Positions 11,400 to 26,092 of a DNA stretch of 62,719 nt are shown piece after piece. Origin of the DNA: Candidatus Eiseniibacteriota bacterium (GTDB taxonomy: Bacteria > Arandabacterota > Arandabacteria > Arandabacterales > Arandabacteraceae); the NCBI GenBank assembly GCA_043810925.1, contig JBDRNT010000052.1:1-62719 (forward strand). Reading direction: 5' to 3'. The notes under the pieces were generated by a model that was given only the letters and a program-made list of their open reading frames with translations, had not been told where the DNA came from and ran no database searches. Both the position numbers and the translations under genes were made by a program. Each line of letters starts with the position of its first letter. Positions within the stretch are counted from its first letter, which is position 1.

Positions 11400-12263
11400 T
11401 CAGTCAGCGGATGCCAGCTTGACCTTGGTCCAGAGCTCGAGGCGTTCGGGCATAATGCGGGAATCACCGCCGGGTTCGCGGCCTCCGCCCATTCCGCCAC
11501 CTCGCATCCCTCCTCCACGCTTGCCACCGCCGCCCGGGCCACGGCCAGGCATGTCCCCGCCGGGAACCGCGCCACGAGGCATTTTGCCGCCTGTGGCTTC
11601 ACGCATCTTATCCTGATCGATCTCGGCGGTTTCAAAGCCTAGCCCGACATATGAGCCTTCGTCCATTCCAATGCTATAGGGATGCTGGTCGGTTGATCGA
11701 AGAGGGATCTTAACCTCGTAAAGGAATCTTCCGTCCTGGTGGCCAAGCCGGACTTCCAGCCCGGCAAGTTGAGATGGAAAGAGTCTGATGACGTCATCCT
11801 CAGTTGGACCAATGATCTCAAGCTGTTCTACGGATGATTCCAGTTTCTCGAGGATCATGTCGGTGAACTTGTCGCGATCCTGTGTGATCTTGCTAAACTG
11901 CGAGGGATCATCCATCTCCTGTGGGGCGCCGATCGGGCAGCGGATCCCGAATGACTTCTGCTTCCCACCTTCGGGGTCAAGCCAGACCGTTAAGCCACGG
12001 GCCATGATCTGAGCTGCCACACTGCGCAGAGATGTCGATAGCGATACATAGAGGTAGTCATCGTCATTCATTATCCCAACAGCAACGGATGAGTCTTCGA
12101 CGTAAGTGGTGGTTCCCTGCCATTCCGTGGGAATCCCGTCAATCTTTACCTCACGATCGCGCCACACACTGCTCAATTCAAGGCCCCCACATCCGGCGAA
12201 GGAAGCGAGTGAGATCAAGACGAGACTGCCGAGCATCACGTCCCGTGGTCGGATCCTGCTCAT
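11400..12263 (-). CDS. Lipoprotein of unknown function with Gly/Met-rich loop; paralog of 36478-37326
   Basis: RBS AAGGAGG before ATG 12263; lipobox FAGC; IDG..EW and NDDDYLY motifs shared with paralog. Confidence 0.8.
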   Translation of the reverse strand: MSRIRPRDVMLGSLVLISLASFAGCGGLELSSVWRDREVKIDGIPTEWQGTTTYVEDSSVAVGIMNDDDYLYVSLSTSLRSVAAQIMARGLTVWLDPEGGKQKSFGIRCPIGAPQEMDDPSQFSKITQDRDKFTDMILEKLESSVEQLEIIGPTEDDVIRLFPSQLAGLEVRLGHQDGRFLYEVKIPLRSTDQHPYSIGMDEGSYVGLGFETAEIDQDKMREATGGKMPRGAVPGGDMPGRGPGGGGKRGGGMRGGGMGGGREPGGDSRIMPERLELWTKVKLASAD

Positions 12264-12322
12264 CGGTACATCCTCCTTTCGAGCGGCAGGCCGGGTGCGT
12301 TCCCGGTCGCTGCCGTCGTCTC

Positions 12323-12362
12323 GCATCGCATCGGGGTCGGGGCCCCTGACCCGATGCGATGC
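12323..12362. terminator. Strong GC-rich hairpin between repeat-protein gene and lipoprotein gene
   Basis: GCATCGCATCGGG / CCCGATGCGATGC perfect 13-bp arms plus inner GTCGGGG/CCCCTGAC; no clear U-tract. Confidence 0.55.
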
Positions 12363-12378
12363 CGTAACCTGCGGGGTG

Positions 12379-13080
12379 CTACTTGAAGCTCTCCTTGATC
12401 AACCCCCAGGTTGCCGGCTCTTCGTTCTCTGATGAGAGTGTGGATGCATCTGCCTCACTGTCACTGCTCCGTGGTGGCAATTCGATGCCCCAACCCTTGA
12501 GCATCTGATCTACCGCTTGGTGGATCTCCTCACGTGACGCACCTGCCTTTCTCATCTCCATGACTTTGTCATGAACCACCTCGCGCTGCTCTTCTGTGAG
12601 CAGTTCGCCGAGTTTGCCGTGGGGACCCGGATGTTCGGGACCATGCTCGGGCGGTTCAATGCCCCACCCTTCGAGCATCTCTCGAACGGCCTCGTGGATC
12701 TCCTTGCGTGACGCACCGGCTTCCCTCATCTCCGTGACCATGTCATGAACCGCTTCACGCTGCTCTTCTGTGAGCAGTTCACCGAGTTTGCCGTGGGGAC
12801 CGGGGTGTCGGGGACCATGCTCGGGCGGCTCGATGCCCCACCCTTCGAGCATCTCTCGAACGGTCTCGTGGATCTCCTTGCGTGACGCACCGGCTTCCCT
12901 CATCTCCGTGACCATGTCATGAACCGCTTCGCGCTGCTCTTCGGTGAGCAGTTCACCTAGTTTGCTATGAGGGCCGGAATGTCCGGGTCCGCCGGAAAGG
13001 GAGCCGGACCGTCCGGCGTAGCTCAGGGCGGTAGCTCCAATCACTGCGATCAGTACGATCATCAGACCGAATCTCTTCAT
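12379..13080 (-). CDS. Exported His/Met/Glu-rich helical repeat protein (3 x 58 aa) with C-terminal TWGLIK motif
   Basis: RBS GGAGGTG, signal peptide MKRFGLMIVLIAVIGATALSYA, repeats KLGELLTEEQRE...GWGIE. Confidence 0.85.
   Translation of the reverse strand: MKRFGLMIVLIAVIGATALSYAGRSGSLSGGPGHSGPHSKLGELLTEEQREAVHDMVTEMREAGASRKEIHETVREMLEGWGIEPPEHGPRHPGPHGKLGELLTEEQREAVHDMVTEMREAGASRKEIHEAVREMLEGWGIEPPEHGPEHPGPHGKLGELLTEEQREVVHDKVMEMRKAGASREEIHQAVDQMLKGWGIELPPRSSDSEADASTLSSENEEPATWGLIKESFK
12470..12970 (-). repeat. Intragenic tandem repeat, 174-bp period, about 3 copies
   Basis: GAGCAGTTC recurs at 12598, 12772, 12946. Confidence 0.92.
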
Positions 13081-13121
13081 CTCTTGTTCACCTCCTTCCG
13101 GTCTTCCGGGTTTCATAACGG

Positions 13122-13150
13122 TTAGACAACGATTCACCGGGTCCTATTCC
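13122..13150 (-). promoter_or_regulatory. ECF sigma promoter GGAATA-N16-TGTCTAA for the repeat-protein gene
   Basis: Both boxes and spacing identical to the site upstream of the sigma gene (14649-14677). Confidence 0.8.
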
Positions 13151-13232
13151 CAGATTCCGAAAGAAACGGGTGAGCCGGCATCGCCGGGGTGAGATTGGAG
13201 GACGAAGAGAAAGTAAGTCCTGAATTCGCTGG

Positions 13233-13625
13233 TTACTCTGGTGGCCTGCGGGGCTTCATGTGATCGCGCATCCTGCGCAGGTGCTCATGCCTGTTGTCAA
13301 GGCGCTCCTTCTGTTCGTCTGTAAGGATGGGATCGAGATCGTTTCTCATTGAATCCATGACGGCGGAAATTTCAGACCGGAATTCGGAGCTTATGTCGGA
13401 AAAGCGTTCTGAATGCTCGGCGAGAATACTACGCACTGCTTCGACCTGGTCGGGCTCGGGATCGATCAGCATCTCAATTGCGGACGCGAAGCCGTCCGGG
13501 CGCCCGCCGGGGAAGGGTGGCCTCAAGTGTCGGTGTAGCACGGGACCCGCGAGGAAAAGCCCGATCAAGATACCGATCACCAGTGTTGCAACAACGATAA
13601 GCGTGGTCTGCGATCGCGTGCTCAT
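13233..13625 (-). CDS. Membrane-anchored helical periplasmic protein (Spy/CpxP/heavy-metal-sensor-like)
   Basis: N-terminal TM, ILTDEQKERL motif, coupled to anti-sigma gene. Confidence 0.7.
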   Translation of the reverse strand: MSTRSQTTLIVVATLVIGILIGLFLAGPVLHRHLRPPFPGGRPDGFASAIEMLIDPEPDQVEAVRSILAEHSERFSDISSEFRSEISAVMDSMRNDLDPILTDEQKERLDNRHEHLRRMRDHMKPRRPPE

Positions 13626-14056
13626 GATAATGCCTCCATCACCGATTCAAACGGCGTTTCGATTACTTCTTCAATCGTGACCTTGGGTACACCCAGGGCG
13701 GCGGTTGCGGATATAGTGTTACTGCTGACGATATTGAAGATCGCCAGAGCGACTACTGCGAGAGCCCCGGCGAAGGCCGCCCGGCGAAACACATATGATA
13801 ACGATTCGAGAAATGTTTCTGCTCCGCGGTTCTCACCGGCGTTCGCCGTGAGCCGGCTCATCACCCGCTCGGCAAAGAACGGCTTGAAGGATTCCGCCGC
13901 ACTCACCGCCAACGACCTGCGGATCGCCAGGATTCGCACTCTCTCTTCGCGGAGTGCCTCCGACCGGGCCAGCGCCTCATCAAGTCGATGTTGCTCGGCG
14001 GGATCAAGATCCTCGTCAAGTGACCGGTAGAGCAGATTGAGCATTTCTTCATTCAT
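13622..14056 (-). CDS. Putative anti-sigma factor (single TM)
   Basis: Follows ECF sigma; cytoplasmic N-domain, FAERVM motif, one TM. Confidence 0.75.
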   Translation of the reverse strand: MNEEMLNLLYRSLDEDLDPAEQHRLDEALARSEALREERVRILAIRRSLAVSAAESFKPFFAERVMSRLTANAGENRGAETFLESLSYVFRRAAFAGALAVVALAIFNIVSSNTISATAALGVPKVTIEEVIETPFESVMEALS

Positions 14057-14058
14057 CG

Positions 14059-14616
14059 TTAGCCCCCATAAACATGCGGCAGTGCCTGCCTGAGTCTTCT
14101 CTGGGCCCTCGAGAGACGGGACAGCACCGTCCCAAGTGGTATCCCCAGGATATCTGCCGTCTCCGCGGTGGAGTACCCATCGATCAATCTCAGGACAACC
14201 ACAGCCCGGAAATCATCATCAAGTTCCTGAACCGCACGCTCGACGATCTCGGGATCCACTCCCTCCTCGGCGCGCGTCTTTGGATCGGCAATATCGTGAA
14301 ACTCCTCCACGGGTTTCTGCGAGAACAACAGTCGTTTCCGCTTTCGGCGTTTGATCTCGTTCAAGGACAGGTTTATTGCAATCCTTGTCAGATAGGTCTT
14401 GAGGCTCGATTCTCCCCTGAAGCTCTTAAGGGCCTTGTAGAAGCGGATGAACGTCTCCTGCCCTACGTCTTCCGCCTCTGCACAGTTTCCGAGCATGCCG
14501 ATCACCGTTGCCGCTACAACAGGCTCATAACGCCTGACGAGCTCCTTAAAAGCACGGTTGCTACCTTCACGGGCATTCCTGATTAGAGCTTCATCTATCA
14601 AGTGTTCTCTTTCCAA
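14059..14616 (-). CDS. ECF sigma-70 factor
   Basis: AEDVGQETF, region 4 TAETADILGIPLGTVLSRLSRA. Confidence 0.95.
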   Translation of the reverse strand: MEREHLIDEALIRNAREGSNRAFKELVRRYEPVVAATVIGMLGNCAEAEDVGQETFIRFYKALKSFRGESSLKTYLTRIAINLSLNEIKRRKRKRLLFSQKPVEEFHDIADPKTRAEEGVDPEIVERAVQELDDDFRAVVVLRLIDGYSTAETADILGIPLGTVLSRLSRAQRRLRQALPHVYGG

Positions 14617-14677: not shown

Positions 14678-14773
14678 ATAAGGGGATGAATTGGGCGTGA
14701 CCAAGGCACGCGCGGTGCCTCCGGGCGGTCTTTTGACCTTGAATTAAGTGTCGTGTCACCTTAATTTTGAGCC

Positions 14774-16543
14774 ATGATGAGAGTTTTGTTCCTCTGTTCC
14801 AGGAATGCATGCCGCAGCCAGATGGCCGAGGGGTTTGCGCGTTCGAGAAACGAGCCGGGCGTCGAGATAGCAAGTGCAGGTACTGTTGCGACAAGCGTTC
14901 ACCCGCTGGCGATCCGGGTGATGTCCGAGGCGGGCATCGACATTGCCGACCAGGCCTCGAAGTCCCTGGGTGAGCTTAAGTTGCTTGATTTCGATGTTGT
15001 GATTTCACTGTGCGATCAGGCAGCCAGGACCTGCCCCGTCCTTCCCGGTAATCCGGAGGTGGTCAACTGGGACCTTCCGGACCCGGCTGAGGAAGCTGAG
15101 GCCGCGAGATCCGGCAAAACACCTGAAAATGGAGATGAAGCCGCACTCAACGTTTTCAGGGCCTCGCGTGATGAGATTCGCCGGCTTGTCGATGACTTGT
15201 TCGAACGGGGTTATCTTAAGGCGCTCGCCGAGGCGAAGAGCGTTGCAGGCCTTGTCCTCAGCAATATCTCCGATGGCATCATCGCGCACGACATGGACCG
15301 GCGGGTATTTTACTTCAACAAGGCGGCCGAGGAGATTACGGGGTACACCCGAGCGGAAGTGATAAACCGTGACTGTCATGAAGCGTTTCCCGGAAGGTTC
15401 TGCGGGGGCAAGTGCCACTTCTGTGAGGATGCTCCGCCCGTGTCGGACTTCCTCAGGCAGGAGCTCGATATCACGACGAAGAGTGGAGAGCAGCGATTTG
15501 TCGAGATGTCGATCAGGGCCATGACCGGCGGCACGGGCGAGAAGATAGGCGTGCTAGTCTCCTTCAGGGACCTTACGCGGGAACGTCGTCTTGCCCGGCG
15601 GTTGGGTGAGGTCGATAGTTTTGCGGGGATCATCGGGCGAGACAGCAAGATGCTCGAGGTTTTCGATCTGATCCGGGATCTGGCGGATTCACAGGCGCCG
15701 GTGCTGGTCCAGGGGGAAAGCGGCACAGGCAAGGAACTTGTGGCTGCGGCGATTCACAATGAAGGGCAGCGTGCCAGCAGCCTCTTTGTACCAGTTAACT
15801 GCGGCGCCCTCCCCGAGTCTCTGCTTGAGAGTGAGCTCTTCGGCCACGTTAAGGGCGCGTTCACAGGGGCGATCCGCGATAAGAAAGGCCGGTTTGAGCT
15901 TGCCGACGGGGGGACCATCTTTCTGGATGAGATCGGTGACATCCCGCCTGCCACCCAGGTGAGGCTTCTGAGGGTGCTGCAGGACGGCACCTTTGAGCGG
16001 GTCGGCAGCGAGAGAACGGTCAAGGTCGATGTTCGTCTGATAAGTGCGACGAACAAGAATCTGACGGAGGAGATTGCCGCCGGCAGATTCAGGGAGGACC
16101 TCTTTTACAGACTCAGTGTCGTTCCTGTTGTCTTGCCGCCACTTCGTGACCGGCGAAACGATATACCGCTGCTTGTAGACCATGTCCTGAGGCGGGAAAC
16201 CGAGAGAATGAACCGGGGGGAGATCACGATCTCGCCGGAAGTGATGGGTATCTTGCTGTCCTACGACTGGCCGGGCAATGTCCGGGAGCTTCAAAACTGG
16301 ATCCAGTTCGCACTTGTCAAGTGCAAGGGTGAGGTGATCAAGGCGGAGCACTTGCCCCCACGAATCGGTTCACCCCCCCTTCCTGCCGGGAGAGCAAGAC
16401 GACCCCGCAGCCGGAAGCTCAATGCCATCTCGGTACGCAGCGCGCTCGCTGAAACCGGAGGCAACAAGGTCGAGGCGGCCCGGCGTCTGGGCGTATCGCG
16501 CGCGACCCTCTACCGGTTCCTCGACGAGGTCGGCGATCTGTAG
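14774..16543 (+). CDS. Sigma54 enhancer-binding protein: ArsC/LMW-PTP - PAS (CX8CX3C) - AAA+ - Fis HTH fusion
   Basis: CSRNACRSQMAEG, LCDQAARTCP, DP; PAS with CHEAFPGRFCGGKCHFC; GESGTGKE, GAFTGA, WPGNVREL, LGVSRATLYR. Confidence 0.93.
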   Translation: MMRVLFLCSRNACRSQMAEGFARSRNEPGVEIASAGTVATSVHPLAIRVMSEAGIDIADQASKSLGELKLLDFDVVISLCDQAARTCPVLPGNPEVVNWDLPDPAEEAEAARSGKTPENGDEAALNVFRASRDEIRRLVDDLFERGYLKALAEAKSVAGLVLSNISDGIIAHDMDRRVFYFNKAAEEITGYTRAEVINRDCHEAFPGRFCGGKCHFCEDAPPVSDFLRQELDITTKSGEQRFVEMSIRAMTGGTGEKIGVLVSFRDLTRERRLARRLGEVDSFAGIIGRDSKMLEVFDLIRDLADSQAPVLVQGESGTGKELVAAAIHNEGQRASSLFVPVNCGALPESLLESELFGHVKGAFTGAIRDKKGRFELADGGTIFLDEIGDIPPATQVRLLRVLQDGTFERVGSERTVKVDVRLISATNKNLTEEIAAGRFREDLFYRLSVVPVVLPPLRDRRNDIPLLVDHVLRRETERMNRGEITISPEVMGILLSYDWPGNVRELQNWIQFALVKCKGEVIKAEHLPPRIGSPPLPAGRARRPRSRKLNAISVRSALAETGGNKVEAARRLGVSRATLYRFLDEVGDL

Positions 16544-16562: not shown

Positions 16563-16609
16563 TGTCTCAAAGTGTCTCATTGTCTATTCCTGCGCCTCCA
16601 AATGAGACA
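16563..16609 (+). promoter_or_regulatory. Candidate upstream activator sequence (TGTCTCA x2, TGAGACA)
   Basis: TGTCTCA at 16563 and 16573, TGAGACA at 16603; mirrored at 23365-23414. Confidence 0.7.
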
Positions 16610-16695
16610 GATCCAAGTATTCCGCCGGCAGAATGTCCTACGTAATTGCCTTTGCCATAAAGAGTTAGCCCATTCCTGCCAGACTACACCAAGAT

Positions 16696-16712
16696 TGGCA
16701 CGAATCGAGCAT
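16696..16712 (+). promoter_or_regulatory. Sigma54 -24/-12 promoter TGGCACGAATCGAGCAT
   Basis: TGGCACG with GG-N10-GC spacing, directly downstream of the EBP gene. Confidence 0.75.
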
Positions 16713-16745
16713 GAATAATTCGGTGTCTTGAATAATTCGGTGTCT
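16712..16745 (+). repeat. 17-bp tandem duplication TGAATAATTCGGTGTCT x2
   Basis: Exact direct repeat; contains the TAATTCGGTG end of repeat family A. Confidence 0.9.
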
Positions 16746-16775
16746 GCTTACAAATTAGGGGAATCGGGGACAGTT

Positions 16776-16979
16776 ATGAATCAAGCGCGTAATGATTACA
16801 TCAAAAAAGCTCTGGAGTTGGCGCGCACGCTGACCATCCTGGCAGATGAGGGTGAGGCCGTAAGCCGGGATGACGGCTGCATAGTCCTCTACAGCGTGAT
16901 CAGGGATTGTGCCTACAGAATTCGCACTGAGGCTGAGCGGGAACGGGATGCGCACAAGGCGAAAGGCGTGTGGGCGTGA
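16776..16979 (+). CDS. Small helical hypothetical protein (67 aa, two Cys)
   Basis: GGGGA RBS, first ORF after the sigma54 promoter; LADEG...GC..LY...RDCAY pattern. Confidence 0.75.
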   Translation: MNQARNDYIKKALELARTLTILADEGEAVSRDDGCIVLYSVIRDCAYRIRTEAERERDAHKAKGVWA

Positions 16980-17092: not shown

Positions 17093-17683
17093 ATGAGTTC
17101 GAAGAGAATCGCAGTTGCATTATTGTTGGGCGTCATCATAAGTGTGTTCGCAGTGACTACTGTGACAGCGGGAACTGGTTGTTCGAAGAAGTGTGCCAGC
17201 GCCTGCGGCGCCGCGGAGAAGAAGGCGGAATCTCCGGAGGCCACGGTCATAAAGGCTCAGACGATCTGCCCGGTGATGGGCAATGAGATCAACAAGAATC
17301 TTTACGCAGACGTGGACGGTAAGCGTGTATATGTGTGCTGTCAGGGTTGTATTGCAGCCGTCAAGGCGGATCCTGAGAAGTACCTGGCATTGATCGCGGC
17401 CAGGGGCGAGACGGTCGCGGAGACGCCACCGATACTCTGCGGTAAGTGCGGCCAGCTCAAGGGAACCGAGGAATGCTGTATGAAGGACGCGGTCAGGTGC
17501 AAAGATTGCGGCATGGCGAAGGGATCGCCCGGGTGCTGCATCATGCCTGAAGCGGGCAAGGACGTCGATCTATGCACGAAGTGTGGTGAGATCAAGGGAA
17601 GCGATGACTGCTGTGGCAAGGACATGCAACATTGCAAGAAGTGTGGACTGGCAAAGGACTCACCCGGTTGTTGCAATATCTAA
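17093..17683 (+). CDS. Exported YHS-domain protein with four CxxCG..K....CC repeats
   Basis: Signal peptide from ATG 17093; QTICPVMG...VYVCCQGC...DPEKY YHS motif; Cys-rich tail. Confidence 0.85.
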
Positions 17684-19974
17684 GCGCCGAGGCCATCACG
17701 GCGGCGGAGAGGCGAGGTCGCGCCCGGCCTCGCCGCTTCCGCAACCCCGGGGCAAGGGCCACTCGATCAGGAACAAGTGGCCCGGTCCTGATACTGCTTG
17801 CGGTGGCGATGGCGTTCTTGTGGTCTGGATGCAGCACGGAGAGAGGTGATGAGACGGTGGTGACCGAAGACAAGACCGGCGTGCACGTCAACAGACTCAT
17901 AAACGAAGCGAGCCCCTATCTTCTCCAGCATGCCCATAATCCGGTGGACTGGTATCCGTGGGGAGAAGAGGCCCTGGCCAGGGCTCGCCATGAAACCAAA
18001 CCCATATTTCTTTCAATCGGTTACTCTGCCTGCCACTGGTGCCATGTGATGGAACTTGAATCCTTTGAGAATGATGAGATTGCCGGGATCCTCAACCGGG
18101 AGTTCGTATCGATCAAGGTGGACAGGGAGGAGCGTCCCGATCTCGACGAGATCTACATGAATTCGGTCCAGTTGATGACCGGAAGCGGCGGCTGGCCTCT
18201 TTCGGTGTTCCTGACCCCCGACCTCAAGCCTTTCTTCGGCGGTACATACTTCCCGCCGGAGGATCGCCTCGGTCTGCCGGGATTTAAGAGCGTGCTTATG
18301 CAGGTGGCGGCGGTGTGGATGGAAAGACGGGGAGATGTCCTCAACAGCGCCGAACAGATCACCCAGGTCCTGCGAACACGTCGGCAAATGTCATCCGGAG
18401 ACGGGGAGATCGACAAGGACATTCTGAGCGAGACTGTAAAGCAGCTCACCTATTCATTCGATCAGAAATTCGGCGGGTTCGGCGACGCTCCCAAGTTTCC
18501 ACCCTCGGGTGCGATCGGTTTGCTCCTTCGGCGGTATCTGCAGACACGTGATGAAAACCTCCTTCGCATGGCGACTCTTACACTCGATAAAATGGCCGGG
18601 GGCGGAATGTATGATCAGATCGGCGGGGGCTTTCATCGCTATTCCGTAGACCGGACGTGGCTGGTTCCGCACTTCGAGAAGATGCTTTACGACAATGCAC
18701 TGCTGAGCGTCACCTATCTTGAAGCCTACCAGTTGACCGGAAAGCCGCTTTATCGCAGGATTGCCGCTGAAACACTGGATTATGTCATCCGCGTGATGAG
18801 CGCCCCGTCGGGCGGGTTTCACTCCACCCAGGATGCCGACAGCGAGGGAGAAGAAGGCAAGTACTATGTCTGGGGCGCAGGTGAGATTGCCGACATCCTC
18901 GGTCCGGCGGATGCCACACTCTTCTCTGCCTACTATGATGTTACCGATGAAGGTAATTTCGAAGGGAAGACCATTCTGAATGTTCCGGTTACGGCCGGCG
19001 AGTTCGCCGGTACGCATGACATGACGGAAGAAGATCTGTTGGTGCGCTTCGCACCACTGAGGAAGAGACTACTCCAGGCACGGGCCGGGCGGGTTCCACC
19101 GGCCATGGACGACAAGGTCATTGCATCGTGGAACGGGATGATGATATCCGCGCTCGCACGAGGCTACCAGGTGCTCGGCGAAAAGCGCTTCCGTACAGCG
19201 GCCGAAGGAGCGGGCGACTTCATCCTGGCCTCCATGATGGAAAATGGAGAGATCTTCCACACCTACCGCGCAGGGCATGCGAGGATTCCCGGCTACCTCG
19301 ATGACTACGCTCACATTGCGAATGCGATGGTGGACCTCTATGAGACAACATTTGATGTCAGGTGGATAGAAGCATCCAACGGGTTGGTTGCGAAAATGAT
19401 CGATCTCTTCCGGGATGACGACCAGGGGGGATTCTATTTCACCTCTTCACGCCACCAACACCTTCTGACGAGGACCAAGCCCTATTTGGACGGCTCGGTA
19501 CCCTCCGGTAATTCGACCGCGGCACTTGTTCTTCTACGGTTGGGAAGACTTACCGGCAACAACGCTTACCTTACCAGGGCCGAACAGGTCCTGAGAGCGG
19601 CCATGCCGATGCTCAAGGCGCACCCTACGGCGCTCACCCACATGTTGGGTGCGATGGATTCCTATCTATCTCCCGTCAAGGAGATAGCGATCGCGGGGAG
19701 GATAGATGAGCCCGAGACCCGGCAGATGCTGGCTACGGTTCGCAGCGGGTTTCTGCCCAACAAGGTCGTCGCTTTCATTGATCCTGATGACGCCGGCGCC
19801 CAGCAGGCCCGGGAGCATATCCCCTTGCTTGCCGGAAGGTCGGTATTGTACAATACGGCAACGGCCTACGTGTGCGAGAACCAGGCGTGCGATAGGCCTC
19901 TCAACGATCCCGATGAATTGGCCAGGAAACTCAATCTCGACACCAGGGTAGATCAGGGAGGATCCGACGAATGA
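17632..19974 (+). CDS. yyaL: YyaL/SPATA20 thioredoxin-domain plus alpha/alpha-barrel protein (start uncertain)
   Basis: [45 protein letters not shown]. Confidence 0.92.
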
Positions 19975-21164
19975 ATACATCGCTTCGAGACGGCATCGAC
20001 TGGGTTGGCTATGTCGATTGGACGATCAGGGATTTTCACGGATACCGCACAGAGCGGGGTTCGACCTACAATGCCTACCTCGTCCGCGATGAAAAAACGG
20101 CACTTATAGATACGGTCAAGCGTCCTTATGCAGACAGGCTGCTGGCCAATGTCTCGGCTCTGAGCGATATATCGAAAATCGATTATGTGGTCTGCAATCA
20201 TGCCGAGCCGGACCATTCGGGCAGTCTCCCGGTTGTGTTGAAGGCGTGCCCGAATGCCCGGATAGTGTGTGATGCCAAGTGCAAGGACACCCTGAGCAAG
20301 TATTACGACACCGAAGGCTGGAATTGGAAAGTTGTCGCCGGCGGGGACACCATCTCCCTGGGTAAGCGTACGCTCACATTCGTTGAGACGCCGATGGTCC
20401 ACTGGCCGGAGTCGATGTTTACGTACGTGCCGGAAGAGAAACTTCTCTTCTCAATGGATGCCTTCGGTCAGCACTATGCCTCGGCCCACAGGTTTGATGA
20501 TGAGGAGCCGCTTGATGTCGTGATGGCTGAGGCCAAGATCTACTACGCGAACATAGTAATGCTCTATGGGAAGCCGATCTCGCAGGTTCTGGACAAGGCG
20601 GCCGGGCTCGATATTGAGATCATCGCACCAAGCCACGGTGTGATCTGGAGGAAGAACCTGGACACTATAATCTCTGCGTATAAGTGCTGGGTAGTGTGCA
20701 AACCGGCCGCGAAGGTTCTCGTTGTCTATGACACAATGTGGCAAAGCACCGAGAAGATGGCTCTCGCGATTCTTGAGGGAGCAAGTCAGTGTGGTGTGGA
20801 TGTGAAACTGATCAACATACGTACGAGCGGGACGACAATGCTTGCCGCCGAGACCCTCGATGCCGCGGCCATTGCGTTTGGATCTCCAACACTCAATATG
20901 ACGCTCATGCCGCAGATGGCAGCCGGTCTTACGTATCTTAAGGGACTCAAGCCCGTGGGTAAGGCGGGTTTTGCGTTTGGCTCTTACGGGTGGGCCAAAG
21001 GTGGTGCCAAGGATATCGAGACCTACCTTAAGGATATGAAGTTTGAAATACTGCGCGAACCGCTTCAGGCACAGTTCGTGCCGGGTGGGGATGTACTTGA
21101 TGAATGCCGCGCCGCGGGGAAGATGCTTGCTGAAAAGGCGCTCGCGGTTGTATGCGAAAAATAG
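19971..21164 (+). CDS. fprA: Flavodiiron protein (O2/NO reductase)
   Basis: [23 protein letters not shown], flavodoxin TMWQST and FGSYGW. Confidence 0.95.
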
Positions 21165-21189: not shown

Positions 21190-21762
21190 GTGAATCTTAA
21201 AGGAAGCAAAACGGAGAAGAACCTGCTCACCGCTTTTGCGGGTGAGTCCCAGGCACGAAACCGATACACCTACTTCGCAAGCAAAGCTAAGAAAGACGGT
21301 TACGTACAGATGTCGGCCATATTCGAGGAGACGGCCGCCCAGGAGAAGGAACATGCCGAACGTCTGTTTAAGTTTCTTGAAGGCGGTGCCGTTGAGATAA
21401 CCGGTTCCTTCCCCGCGGGCGTCATCGGTCCCACGGTTGATAATCTAAAAGGGGCTGCCGCGGGTGAGAACTACGAATGGACCGAGATGTATCCCGGCTT
21501 TGCGAAGGTGGCGAAGGATGAAGGTTTCGGCGACATCGCCGAGGTTTTCACGAGCATTGCCGTGGCGGAGAAGTTTCATGAGAAGCGTTACCTGGCACTT
21601 GCAGCCAATATCGACGCGGGACGTGTCTTCAAGCGCCCGGACAAGGTAGTCTGGAGATGCCGCAACTGTGGTTATCTCTACGAGGGAACGGAAGCACCCG
21701 ATGAGTGTCCGGCGTGCGCGCACCCGAAGGCTCACTACGAGCTGCTGTGCGAGAATTGGTAA
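21190..21762 (+). CDS. rbr: Rubrerythrin
   Basis: GTG start after [32 protein letters not shown]...CPAC. Confidence 0.96.
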
Positions 21763-21814: not shown

Positions 21815-22189
21815 ATGGCTGAGAGACTCGAGGTTTACAAGTGTGAAGTGTGCGGCAACATAGTCGAAGTGCTCCACGGAGGCCAGGGCGAGCTCGTCTG
21901 CTGCGGGCAGCCCATGAAGTTACAGGCTGAAAACACGGTTGACGCGGCCAAGGAAAAGCACGTGCCCGTTGTCGAGAAAACACCGTCGGGCGTCAAGGTC
22001 AAGGTCGGCAGTGTGGCCCATCCGATGGAAGAGAAGCACTATATTGAATGGGTACAGATTATCGCCGGCGGCCGTGCATACAGAATCTTCCTTAAACCCG
22101 GCGACGCTCCCGAAGGTACCTTCGATGTCGCTAAGGGTGATGTAATAGCGAGGGAGTACTGTAATCTTCACGGCCACTGGAAAGCATAG
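21815..22189 (+). CDS. dfx: Desulfoferrodoxin (2Fe superoxide reductase)
   Basis: CEVCGN, CCGQPM, EKHVP, HPM, HYIEW, CNLHG. Confidence 0.96.
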
Positions 22190-22283: not shown

Positions 22284-23006
22284 ATGGACTTGACTGCTCT
22301 AAATATGTGCAGCTATGGCCTTTACATCCTGACCTCGAAGAAGGGTGACAAGGTAAACGGCCAGATCGTCAATACGGTCTTTCAGGTGGCGGCCGAACCT
22401 CCGACCATTGCAGTGAGTGTGAATAAGCAGAACCTCACGCATGAGTTTATCTCAGAAAGCAAGGTCTTCACGGCCTCCATCCTTTCAACGGAGGCACCGA
22501 TGACCCTCATTGGAAAATGGGGTTTCAAATCGGGACGGGATACCGACAAGTTTGAAGGTACGAATCACAAACTCGGTGAGACAGGGGCGCCCATAATTCT
22601 GGATAGTACGGTCGCATATGTCGAAGCCCGGGTGGTGAACACCGCCGATGTCGGCACGCACACGATATTCATCGGCAAGGTTGTTGATTGCGGCGTGATC
22701 CGGGATGGTGAGCCGATGACCTATGCTTATTATCACAATGTCAAGAAAGGCAAGACGCCCGAAAGGGCAGCAACATTTGTGAAGGAAAAATCCGACAAGA
22801 CTGGGACCGGCCCCGCGGGGGGCGCCATGAAGGAGGCAAAGGAATTGAAGAAATACACATGCTCGGTTTGTGGTTATGTCTACGATCCTGCAAAAGGTGA
22901 TCCCGATAACGGTGTAAAGCCGGGGACAGCATTTGAGAGCCTTCCGGATGACTGGGTTTGCCCGGTATGTGAAGCGACCAAAGACCAGTTTTCGCCTGAA
23001 GAGTAA
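22284..23006 (+). CDS. Flavin reductase-rubredoxin fusion (high-molecular-weight rubredoxin)
   Basis: [21 protein letters not shown]-terminal CSVCGYVYD...WVCPVC. Confidence 0.93.
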
Positions 23007-23364: not shown

Positions 23365-23414
23365 TGTCTCACCGGCCCTTGTGGCGGCGCCGGCTTGCGA
23401 GACATTGTGAGACA
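23365..23414 (+). promoter_or_regulatory. Candidate upstream activator sequence for hcp operon
   Basis: TGTCTCA 23365, CGAGACA 23398, TGAGACA 23408. Confidence 0.7.
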
Positions 23415-23502: not shown

Positions 23503-23518
23503 TGGCACGTATCCTGCC
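23503..23518 (+). promoter_or_regulatory. Sigma54 -24/-12 promoter TGGCACGTATCCTGCC
   Basis: Near-consensus TGGCACG-N4-CTGC, about 55 bp before the hcp ATG. Confidence 0.8.
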
Positions 23519-23573: not shown

Positions 23574-25226
23574 ATGTTTTGCTACCAGTGTGAACAGACC
23601 GCCAAGGGAACCGGCTGTGACAAGTTCGGTGTATGCGGTAAGTCGCCGGAGGTGGCTAACCTGCATGATGTCCTGGTCCATGCGACTAAGGGCATAGGCA
23701 TGTACGCCCACCGGGCAGGGCAGCTCGGTGCCCGCGACCATGATGTCGATGTCTTCGTACTTGAAGCCCTCTTCTCGACAGTGACAAACGTGGATTTCGA
23801 TCCTGACCGGATCGAGGGTTTCATCCGCAAGGCCGCCGGGATCAAGGACAAGGCCAGGGCGCTTTACGAAAGTGCCTGCAAGAAGGCCGGGAAGACTCCG
23901 GAGGAACTCTCGGGGCCCGCGCAGTGGGTACCCGGCTCGAGCCGAGAAGAACTCGTCATCGAGGGCGAAAAGGTCGGTATCAATGCTGCGCGGCAGGCCT
24001 CGGGTGATGATATCGCGGGGCTCCAGTATCTTCTCATCTATGGCCTTAAGGGCACGGCTGCTTACGCCGACCATGCCATGATCCTCGGTAAGGAGAACGA
24101 TGGGGTATATGCGTTCTTCCACGAGGCCCTCGACTACCTTGCAAAGGGTAATCCCACTGTAGATGAACTCCTCGGGCTTTGCCTGCGCTGCGGTGAGGTG
24201 AATCTCCAGGTGATGGGCCTGCTCGATGCCGCCAACACGGATGCATACGGTCATCCCGAGCCCACACAGGTGAGGGTGGAACCGGTCAAGGGCAAGGCCA
24301 TACTGGTGTCCGGACATGATCTTAAGGATCTCGATGGACTCCTCAAACAGACCGAAGGCAAGGGAGTCAATGTCTACACTCATGGTGAGATGCTGCCTGC
24401 TCATGCTTATCCCGGACTCAAGAAGTACAAGCACCTGGTCGGCAACTACGGCGGTGCCTGGCAGGACCAGCAGCGCGAGTTCGAAGATTTTCCGGGTGCG
24501 ATATTGATGACAACCAACTGCATCCAGAAGCCAAGAGAAAGCTACAAAGCGAGGATCTTCACCTGCGGTCTCGTCGCCTGGCCGGGGGTCCCGCACATCG
24601 CAGATAGTGATTTCACCCCGGTGATCGATGCGGCACTCAAGGCGGAGGGTTTTGCTGAAGACGGTCCGGACAAGACGATCACCGTCGGTTTCGGCCACAA
24701 TGCCGTGCTCGGGGTTGCGGACAAAGTGATTGAAGCTGTGAAATCGGGCAAGATCAAGCATTTCTTCCTGATCGGCGGGTGCGACGGCGCAAAGAGCGGG
24801 CGGAACTATTACACCCAGTTCGCCGAGGCTGTGCCTCGCGATTCGGTGATTCTGACACTGGCGTGCGGTAAGTACCGTTTCAACAAACTCGACTTCGGTG
24901 ACATAGATGGTATTCCGAGACTGCTCGATATCGGCCAGTGTAACGATGCTTACTCGGCGATTCAGATTGCGGTGGCTCTTGCCAAGGCATTTGATACGGA
25001 TGTCAACAGCCTGCCGCTTTCGATGATACTCTCATGGTACGAGCAGAAGGCTGTATGCATACTCCTGACTCTGCTCCATCTCGGTATCAAGAACATCAAA
25101 CTCGGTCCGAGTCTGCCGGCGTTTGTTACCCCGGCGGCACTCAAGGTGCTGGTCGATAAGTTCAATATCGCTCCGATTTCGACGGTCGAAGAGGACCTCA
25201 AGTCGGCGCTCGGTCAGGCTGTGTAG
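23574..25226 (+). CDS. hcp: Hybrid cluster protein (hydroxylamine/NO reductase)
   Basis: MFCYQCEQT...C...GVCGK, SGHDL, THGEM, TTNC, GGCDG, LACGK, GQCND, SWYEQK. Confidence 0.97.
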   Translation: MFCYQCEQTAKGTGCDKFGVCGKSPEVANLHDVLVHATKGIGMYAHRAGQLGARDHDVDVFVLEALFSTVTNVDFDPDRIEGFIRKAAGIKDKARALYESACKKAGKTPEELSGPAQWVPGSSREELVIEGEKVGINAARQASGDDIAGLQYLLIYGLKGTAAYADHAMILGKENDGVYAFFHEALDYLAKGNPTVDELLGLCLRCGEVNLQVMGLLDAANTDAYGHPEPTQVRVEPVKGKAILVSGHDLKDLDGLLKQTEGKGVNVYTHGEMLPAHAYPGLKKYKHLVGNYGGAWQDQQREFEDFPGAILMTTNCIQKPRESYKARIFTCGLVAWPGVPHIADSDFTPVIDAALKAEGFAEDGPDKTITVGFGHNAVLGVADKVIEAVKSGKIKHFFLIGGCDGAKSGRNYYTQFAEAVPRDSVILTLACGKYRFNKLDFGDIDGIPRLLDIGQCNDAYSAIQIAVALAKAFDTDVNSLPLSMILSWYEQKAVCILLTLLHLGIKNIKLGPSLPAFVTPAALKVLVDKFNIAPISTVEEDLKSALGQAV

Positions 25227-25282: not shown

Positions 25283-26092
25283 ATGGCGAAGCGCAAGATC
25301 ATAAACATTGATGAGGACCTGTGCACCGGGTGTGGTGAGTGTATAACCGGGTGTGCGGAAGGCGCGCTCGCTCTGGTCGCCGGTAAGGCCAAGCTGGTCA
25401 AAGAGCAGTTCTGTGACGGTTTCGGTGATTGCATCGGCACCTGCCCCACGGGGGCCCTCAAGATCGAGGAGCGCGAGAGCGACGAATTCGATAGCGAAGC
25501 GACGAAGCAATATCTCAGGCAGACCCAGGGCGATGAAGCGGTTCGTAAGATGGAAGACGCAGCCCGGGCCCATGAGGAAGGAAGGCATCCGGGGAAGAAG
25601 CCCGACAAGGCACCGGGGCCGGCTCCGGGTGGTTGTCCCGGCAGCAGGATGAGAACCAATCTCAAGTCCGGAGGCGGCAGCCAGGCGGTGCCCGCATCGG
25701 GAATGCCGGGTCATGTCAATGAATCCGAACTCGACCAGTGGCCCGTCCAGCTCCACCTGGTTCAGCCGGGAGCCCCGTTCTTTGAGGATCGTGAACTTGT
25801 GGTTCTGAGTACGTGCTCCCCAATTGCGTCTGCGGACGTACACTGGCGCTTCATGCGTGGACGGGCGGTTGTGGTCGGCTGTCCCAAACTGGACCGGACG
25901 GAACCCTATGTCGGGAAACTTGCAGCGATATTGAGCGAGCCGACGATACCCAGGGTGATCGTCGTCCGGATGGAGGTTCCGTGCTGCGGAGGGCTCACGG
26001 CAATGGTGCGGGAAGCCGTCAAGCAGAGTGGTCGCAAAGACCTCGGGTTCGAGGAGGTCACAATCGGTATCAACGGCGACATAGCAGGATAG
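25283..26092 (+). CDS. Hcp-associated 2x[4Fe-4S] ferredoxin-domain protein
   Basis: CTGCGEC...C, CDGFGDCIGTCP, GGCPG, QWPVQL, GCPKLD, MEVPCC. Confidence 0.9.
   Translation: MAKRKIINIDEDLCTGCGECITGCAEGALALVAGKAKLVKEQFCDGFGDCIGTCPTGALKIEERESDEFDSEATKQYLRQTQGDEAVRKMEDAARAHEEGRHPGKKPDKAPGPAPGGCPGSRMRTNLKSGGGSQAVPASGMPGHVNESELDQWPVQLHLVQPGAPFFEDRELVVLSTCSPIASADVHWRFMRGRAVVVGCPKLDRTEPYVGKLAAILSEPTIPRVIVVRMEVPCCGGLTAMVREAVKQSGRKDLGFEEVTIGINGDIAG

Follow-up and report, generated by a model that had tools for sequence, protein, structure and literature searches.

A sigma-54 activator with a fused ArsC-like domain and a predicted Fe–S PAS sensor beside candidate oxidative-stress operons

The window analysed here, a stretch of 62,719 nucleotides from a Candidatus Eiseniibacteriota bacterium (assembly GCA_043810925.1, contig JBDRNT010000052.1), carries a gene for a sigma-54 activator that joins an ArsC-like domain of the low-molecular-weight protein tyrosine phosphatase (LMW-PTP) fold to PAS, AAA+ and helix-turn-helix (HTH) domains. 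Two candidate sigma-54 promoters with a shared enhancer motif follow the gene and lead into stress-defence operons. The observed architecture, its conservation and the co-occurrence of enhancers, promoters and operons together point to a regulator for which DNA binding, an Fe–S cluster, a polarity of the switch and an enzyme activity can be predicted.

The fused activator gene and its family

The activator gene and its domains are as follows.

14774..16543, + strand: sigma-54 activator gene, 589 aa, with ArsC-like, PAS, AAA+ and Fis HTH domains (reading frame open throughout, Pfam, AlphaFold)
14774..15205, + strand: thioredoxin-type ArsC/LMW-PTP domain with C8, R14, C80, C87 and D103 (Pfam, PDB alignment, TIGR02691)
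14795, 14813, 15011, 15032 and 15080, + strand: codons of C8, R14, C80, C87 and D103 (sequence)
15254..15577, + strand: PAS domain, OrpR-type C201-X-E203...C210-X3-C214 plus C217, predicted Fe–S site (Pfam, OrpR comparison)
15629..16129, + strand: AAA+ sigma-54 interaction domain, GAFTGA intact (Pfam, motif)
16442..16516, + strand: Fis-type HTH (Pfam)

Pfam places LMWPc at residues 4–107 (E 9.5e-18), PAS at 161–268, Sigma54_activat at 286–452 and HTH_8 at 557–581, and the view of the first-pass annotation that a single frame joins these domains stands. The ArsC motifs that it described are likewise in place, namely the CX5R P-loop (C8-SRNAC-R14), the C-X6-C pair (C80-X6-C87) and the DP motif (D103-P104); C201-X8-C210-X3-C214 with C217 and GAFTGA (361–366) follow in the PAS and AAA+ domains. 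Sigma54_activat with GAFTGA and a C-terminal HTH identify the protein as a sigma-54 bacterial enhancer-binding protein (bEBP). In the AlphaFold model (mean predicted local distance difference test score, pLDDT, 87.8) every domain is folded, and two helices, 117–144 and 147–163, connect ArsC and PAS. A fold search with the full model returned AAA+ activators only, and an Atlas search with residues 1–280 returned PAS clusters only. C13 is replaced by Ser even in the copy of a genome from the same genus.

An assembly chimera at the junction, which would have undone the first-pass annotation, is ruled out. A search with residues 1–280 found 273 proteins among 8000 candidates, and the best 120 of the 273 all span the ArsC–PAS join; sources named among the matches are Verrucomicrobiota, Kiritimatiellae, Lentisphaerae, Planctomycetota, Sumerlaeia and Bacillota. 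The same-genus genome holds a syntenic, 88% identical fusion copy, and a public 151-nt contig, which may derive from the source sample, matches 15180–15330 with zero differences. Dozens of more distant representatives of 50% clusters came from a profile search, and 47 were inspected. The fusion occurs in 2 of 18 genomes of the host phylum, in 36 of 251 and then, in a larger set, 70 of 401 genomes from the class of a Kiritimatiellia record, in 5 of 251 from the phylum of a deltaproteobacterial record and in 2 of 251 from the class centred on genome G020; none was found among 83 genomes in the G022-centred class. A GTDB-wide scan returned mostly ordinary ArsC, with fusions at 3 of 80 loci, a metagenome scan gave 8 fusion loci, and viral scans gave nothing relevant to the fusion. 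Public sequencing runs share less than 10% of words with the window, with matches limited to short pieces; one RNA-library contig matches 16919–17100, which does not show expression.

C8, C80 and C87 align with C10, C82 and C89 of Staphylococcus aureus ArsC (PDB 2cd7), the three cysteines that form the thioredoxin-coupled redox relay (PMC2714181), as the first-pass annotation had stated. The domain scores 112.6 bits with TIGR02691, under the cut-off of 174.3, a miss that carries little weight since stand-alone arsC reaches this cut-off in none of 42 related genomes. It is nearer to ArsC (E 1e-22 to 1e-15) than to YwlE (7e-10 and weaker) and, having the resolving Cys pair, does not fit phosphatases such as Wzb and YwlE, which lack it.

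When C8/R14/C80/C87 were scored in 133 full-length fusions, 50 had the whole catalytic set, 6 had part of it and in 77 it was broken; rows with mis-called N-terminal starts were left out of these counts. Many database relatives start wrongly at Met17, and 41 of 121 relatives appeared truncated; true loss of the P-loop was rejected, since the loop lies upstream in frame in all 4 of the 4 relatives with DNA. A PAS–AAA+ tree, built without duplicates, seven loci and rows whose ends were cut, shows intact and dead ArsC states intermixed; branches of at least 95% support require no fewer than 11 changes. Repeated loss of the catalytic site is the simplest reading of this pattern. In the 14-member clade of the window protein, C8 and C80 are kept in 14/14 and R14, C87 and D103 in 13/14.

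Constraint extends beyond the scored residues. N11 is kept in 49/50 intact vs 32/77 dead fusions, and D103 in 48/50 vs 33/77. At matched AAA+ divergence, non-catalytic ArsC identity in intact vs dead pairs is 0.57 vs 0.36, 0.51 vs 0.30 and 0.45 vs 0.26, in non-independent pairs and with the four defining positions omitted, whereas PAS identity differs little (0.53 vs 0.48). The junction motif W99, G146, Y147 is near-invariant, dead copies included. The site therefore looks functional in the window lineage, where its chemistry appears to be still under selection; across the family the ArsC fold seems to be kept, with its chemistry optional for the switch.

In an ArsC-domain tree (FastTree, few columns), the window domain falls among other fused domains, its three nearest having 97% local support, and the fused domains lie apart from most stand-alone ArsCs, of which 40 of 77 were sampled. 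This grouping rules out recent capture of a stand-alone arsC by the window gene and indicates that the fusion is old.

The PAS cysteines C201/C210/C214 have the spacing of C52/C61/C65 in the Desulfovibrio regulator OrpR, whose CX8CX3C motif the first-pass annotation named correctly, and E203 matches its (D,E)54, proposed as the fourth cluster ligand; the OrpR [4Fe-4S] cluster was demonstrated by ultraviolet-visible (UV-vis) and electron paramagnetic resonance (EPR) spectroscopy (PMC8359166). The triad is kept in 129/133 fusions, with D or E at +2 in 108/133. The window protein thus has the full OrpR-type signature (CX8CX3C with an acid at +2), and we infer that its PAS domain holds a [4Fe-4S] cluster. 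The fourth cysteine singled out by the first-pass annotation, C217, is present here, but only 96/133 relatives have it and 37/133 do not.

Further observations concern the gene and its relatives. No Shine-Dalgarno sequence precedes the activator (14739–14774), and a weak TTGAAT-17-TAATTT, which the same-genus genome conserves, stops 6 nt short of the ATG; the activator mRNA may be leaderless. Leaderless transcription as a family trait was rejected, as a −10-like box lies at the right distance in only 5/46 starts, and a promoter scan of the window lists no −10-type promoter before the activator start. Genome G021 has three fusion paralogs. A possible further ArsC fusion is encoded at L196:1513–2484, where a weak ArsC-like part belongs to a flavodoxin-like protein, and two or three tandem ArsC-like stretches occur in eight profile hits (P0134, P0147, P0149, P0162, P0171, P0184, P0186, P0196). 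Another hit, P0168, has a family-like N-terminus and an AAA+ domain that groups with unrelated activators, possibly a domain shuffle.

Enhancers, promoters and downstream stress genes

The region downstream of the activator gene contains the following features.

16563..16609, no strand: candidate enhancer 1, TGTCTCA (16563), TGTCTCA (16573) and TGAGACA (16603) (same-genus conservation, family enrichment)
16696..16710, + strand: candidate sigma-54 −24/−12 promoter 1 (conservation, motif)
16776..16979, + strand: 67-aa orphan helical-hairpin protein with conserved Cys/Asp/His, first gene of the predicted regulon (conservation, predicted fold)
17093..17683, + strand: Cys-rich protein with hydrophobic N-terminus, no Pfam or NCBIfam match
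17632..19974, + strand: DUF255 thioredoxin-domain protein, start codon uncertain (Pfam)
19971..21164, + strand: flavodiiron protein, FprA type, O2/NO reductase family
21190..21762, + strand: rubrerythrin, with a presumed GTG start
21815..22189, + strand: desulfoferrodoxin (superoxide reductase)
22284..23006, + strand: flavin reductase–rubredoxin fusion
23365..23414, no strand: candidate enhancer 2, TGTCTCA (23365), CGAGACA (23398) and TGAGACA (23408) (same-genus conserved islands)
23503..23517, + strand: candidate sigma-54 −24/−12 promoter 2, ahead of hcp
23574..25226, + strand: hybrid cluster protein (Hcp)
25283..26092, + strand: 2x[4Fe-4S] ferredoxin-domain protein

The first pass had overlooked this putative regulon, whose two sigma-54 promoters share an enhancer and which has a 67-aa gene of its own. 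Both enhancer/promoter sets (promoters at 16696 and 23503) form conserved islands against the same-genus genome, in which enhancer 1 is kept save for one change in the second copy. The 3.85-Mb genome has the ordered TGTCTCA…TGAGACA pair 3 times, twice at the sigma-54 promoters of the window. The genome also contains an ORF that we take to be rpoN-like from its RpoN-box motif. Between enhancer 1 and its promoter, an AT-rich stretch (16657–16669) may be a site for integration host factor, and an 18-nt stretch duplicated after the promoter (16711–16746) is absent from the same-genus genome.

The arrangement recurs across the family. At 56 loci, the enhancer hexamer has a density of 3.8/kb just downstream of the activator gene vs 0.28/kb elsewhere, and −24/−12 matches at family loci have 0.68/kb vs 0.024/kb. 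Among 49 loci with at least 1.5 kb downstream, including non-independent kin, stress operon and heptamer occur together in 23 and are both missing in 21; the operon alone occurs in 3 and the heptamer alone in 2. Recurrent neighbours are genes for thioredoxin-like/DsbD proteins, glucose-6-phosphate dehydrogenase (G6PD), ferritin, desulfoferrodoxin (dfx), DUF255, fprA, rubrerythrin (rbr), cydAB and hcp. Three PAS-only activators nest inside the fusion family. In two, the heptamer, small gene and rbr are all retained, together with cydAB in one case and dfx in the other; the third precedes hcp. Because members with dead sites and PAS-only members keep the same elements and targets, ArsC chemistry, and even the domain, appears dispensable for control of the regulon at family level.

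The gene for the 67-aa protein marks the system. It is found in 31/36 fusion genomes vs 2/215 others and in 25/25 heptamer loci. Of 15 further loci with the small gene, 13 have the heptamer, 13 are followed by Trx/DsbD, ferritin, rbr, dfx, fprA or G6PD genes, and two have an activator C-terminus directly upstream. At E<=0.001 the protein matches nothing in Pfam, NCBIfam or the fold search, and its Atlas hits are all unnamed clusters; its predicted hairpin and conserved residues would be compatible with a possible role as feedback partner of the activator or as metal binder.

Several side observations belong to these loci. Dead-site fusions at L153, L155 and L161 (also L156 and L163) lie directly before glnA(III)-gltBD with −24/−12 and no heptamer, or beside a pyruvate phosphate dikinase-like gene, and in those genomes the small-gene stress operon sits elsewhere. 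At L008, L010 and L171, dead-site fusions with the small gene precede cytochrome c3/hmc-like or other redox genes, with the heptamer in L008 and L010. A phosphotransferase system enzyme I-like gene recurs within stress operons (L137, L138, L162, L093, L236, L242–L244). On the other side of the window activator, 11403–14616 (− strand) holds a divergent gene for an extracytoplasmic function (ECF) sigma factor, followed by genes for a putative anti-sigma factor and exported proteins, one with three internal repeats; this block is syntenic in the same-genus genome only.

Proposed function and alternatives

The genes under the candidate promoters suggest a regulon for oxidative-stress defence and not for arsenic. 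We favour, with a probability of roughly 0.6, a sigma-54 activator of oxidative- and nitrosative-stress defence genes in uncultured anaerobes, in which the PAS Fe–S site is the primary sensor and ArsC a retained second function. The activator would bind TGTCTCA…TGAGACA enhancers about 90–140 bp upstream of −24/−12 promoters, and its targets in the window would be the small-ORF-DUF255-fprA-rbr-dfx-rubredoxin operon and hcp-ferredoxin. A [4Fe-4S] cluster on the PAS triad would hold the AAA+ domain off; oxidation or loss of the cluster, or its damage by nitric oxide (NO), would free AAA+ to open the sigma-54 promoters of genes for defence against O2, reactive oxygen species and NO. The physiological polarity would then be opposite to that of OrpR. 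Since Cys-to-Ser and ΔPAS forms of OrpR are constitutively on (PMC8359166), activation through cluster loss is plausible for an OrpR-type PAS domain. ArsC would be an ancient fused structural extension, in the window lineage most likely a working thioredoxin-coupled reductase and possibly a substitute for a missing stand-alone arsC.

This last point was examined by comparing genomes, with three that have cut genes dropped. In the first set, which suggested the link, stand-alone arsC is missing in 6/7 intact-site vs 3/34 other genomes. Among acr3 carriers in the replicate, 2/5 intact-site vs 1/16 other genomes lack stand-alone arsC (p=0.13). A complete arsR…acr3 operon lacking arsC occurs in one intact-site genome, and three other acr3 loci end at contig edges. 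The host genome contains no other ArsC-like gene, its second LMWPc protein (contig C72) being YwlE-like; thioredoxin (Trx) and thioredoxin reductase (TrxR) motifs are present, as are a weak ArsB-family match in unrelated context and an arsR-permease-small thioredoxin-like-DsbD-like operon without arsC and acr3 (C148:33144–36659). A fused ArsC standing in for the absent stand-alone gene is therefore suggestive, not established.

Several observations weigh against the favoured reading. The characterised OrpR is turned off by oxidation (PMC8359166). In the replicate, stand-alone arsC is missing in 5/8 intact-site vs 9/27 other genomes (p=0.22), and the genomes compared are incomplete and related, with several acr3 loci that stop at contig edges. 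A working arsenate reductase would normally need an efflux partner, and no Acr3 was detected in the 91.7%-complete host genome; as the first-pass annotation had noted, none of the window genes scanned is an ars efflux gene, and the window ArsC is no member of an ars operon with arsenite efflux. Stress operons are not adjacent at 21/43 fusion loci, though many such genomes carry the operon elsewhere, and other genes follow some fusions: 3 loci have glnA-gltBD downstream, and L008 and L010 have cytochrome c3/hmc-like genes. The strong constraint on intact ArsC domains fits a sensing role equally well; with constraint as the sole observation, the enzyme and sensor roles are inseparable.

A sensing role would make the protein a dual-input switch, in which a C80–C87 disulfide, formed through arsenate turnover, peroxide or exhausted thioredoxin, is relayed through helices 117–163 and gates the activator jointly with the Fe–S cluster. 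We consider this unlikely, yet it survives best among the alternatives. The whole ArsC domain is constrained in intact lineages, the window clade keeps catalytic residues in 13–14 of 14 members, W99, G146 and Y147 persist even in dead copies, and the redox helix of ArsC unrolls upon oxidation (PMC2714181). Thiol-redox genes and G6PD are abundant in the family regulons, the host genome has the Trx and TrxR motifs, and a stress operon follows intact copies in 6/8 vs dead copies in 13/32 loci. However, the site has been lost many times with enhancer and targets unchanged, PAS-only members exist, and no ars gene occurs among 108 neighbour proteins scanned (of 169 listed) at family loci. Because the set is broken in 77/133 fusions and PAS-only relatives keep enhancer and targets, ArsC chemistry is not the core switch of the family. 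The dual-input proposal of the first-pass annotation therefore holds for the architecture, the OrpR-type Cys-PAS, the redox role and the functional-looking ArsC, and is weakened for gating by ArsC; arsenate as the signal is poorly supported, as the targets are O2, peroxide and NO defence genes. A related and equally doubtful proposal is a trigger enzyme, in which the cell's only thioredoxin-coupled arsenate reductase would control, through its disulfide state together with the Fe–S cluster, a regulon that begins with the 67-aa protein as possible feedback partner.

Less probable again is a polarity like that of OrpR, with the activator working while the cluster is intact in the reduced cell, pre-loading the defence enzymes, and switching off upon oxidation. 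The nearest characterised relative behaves in this way (PMC8359166), and the host's own orp-linked activator is sister to the fusion family (97% support, 45% identity), but the targets, which comprise scavengers of O2, superoxide, peroxide and NO as well as ferritin, DsbD, G6PD and cytochrome bd, would help the cell most during oxidation. We give slightly less credence to PAS cysteines that bind zinc or mononuclear iron or form disulfides, with metal release activating as in PexR, a peroxide-activated bEBP that acts by metal loss (PMC12754779). The fourth cysteine in 96/133 fusions would permit a Cys4 site, yet triad spacing and the acid at +2 match OrpR, whose cluster was seen by UV-vis and EPR, and C217 is absent from 37/133. 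An arsenic-response regulator, whose intact ArsC site would detect arsenate and drive arsenic resistance genes, is very improbable, since no ars gene lies near the scanned loci, the enhancer pair with a sigma-54 promoter occurs in the host genome only before the two stress operons, and the arsR-led permease operon sits on another contig.

Should the preferred reading of an Fe–S-controlled stress activator hold, the fusion family would place rubrerythrin, superoxide reductase, flavodiiron protein, Hcp, ferritin and DsbD in a sigma-54 regulon that spans several phyla. For this regulon a binding site and promoters are predicted and a marker gene is available, so it is directly testable in a heterologous reporter. 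The family forms a natural series from intact enzyme through pseudo-enzyme to domain loss, and the window copy, as the catalytically complete form, is best suited for asking whether the enzyme domain doubles as a sensor. If the trigger-enzyme proposal is true, the transcription of oxygen-defence genes in anaerobes would respond directly to arsenate or thioredoxin load. The control of oxidative stress in such organisms is usually ascribed to factors of the PerR/OxyR type. Few redox-sensing sigma-54 activators have been characterised, among them OrpR, AdhR and PexR (PMC12754779).

Comparison with known systems

OrpR of Desulfovibrio vulgaris Hildenborough (DVU2106, PMC8359166) is, like the window activator, a sigma-54 bEBP with PAS–AAA+–HTH order, a PAS CX8CX3C motif and D/E at +2, and both adjoin their targets, which are predicted for the window. 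In contrast to OrpR, the window activator has an extra N-terminal ArsC domain. The sites also differ, with the candidate TGTCTCA…TGAGACA in the window vs GGGCGYRTTTTGCGCCC for OrpR (PMC8359166), as do the targets, which are the orp genes for OrpR and stress-defence genes here, with no orp genes flanking the window activator. Elsewhere in the host genome (C161:30994–36827), orp-like ATPase genes, labelled orp from a reading of the sequence, adjoin the gene of an activator that has tandem PAS domains and two CX8CX3C motifs. This activator is 45% identical to the window activator and sister to the fusion family (97% support). The window activator is thus probably not an OrpR ortholog, with the host's orp-linked activator serving as proxy for DVU2106.

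PexR of Myxococcus xanthus (PMC12754779) is likewise a sigma-54 oxidative-stress activator released by an N-terminal metal sensor, as predicted for the window protein. It differs in its GAF Zn/Fe site, its ahpC/katB targets and its aerobic host, and it has neither a PAS Cys triad nor an ArsC domain. The ArsC enzymes of S. aureus pI258 and Bacillus subtilis (PMC2714181; PDB 2cd7, 1jl3; TIGR02691) share the LMW-PTP fold, CX5R, C-X6-C and DP with the window domain in a residue-by-residue alignment, whereas the latter is fused to an activator, lies outside an ars operon and falls under the TIGR02691 cut-off. The ArsRC fusion of Paracoccus sp. (PMC11672702) also joins an arsenate-reductase domain to a transcription regulator, but there the ars genes are controlled by an ArsR repressor that senses As(III), the reaction product, while the window protein is a PAS–AAA+ activator with predicted non-ars targets.

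The first-pass annotation knew of no characterised regulator with the ArsC–PAS–AAA+–HTH architecture, and literature searches, which covered few subscription papers and not supplements, found no description of it or of the TGTCTCA…TGAGACA enhancer; the architecture is apparently undescribed. The searchable text of two sigma-54 regulon surveys mentions neither arsenic nor rubrerythrin. New in the present sequence analysis are the candidate enhancer-promoter-small-gene regulon, the contrast in constraint between intact and dead copies, and the partial link to missing arsC. The Spx fold is the glutaredoxin-type ArsC (thioredoxin) fold and not LMW-PTP. Spx of B. subtilis (PMC2801614), in which an ArsC-named fold is reused as a thiol-stress regulator, nevertheless offers a precedent by analogy; unlike the window activator, it binds the alpha subunit of RNA polymerase at its C-terminal domain and is not an ATPase.

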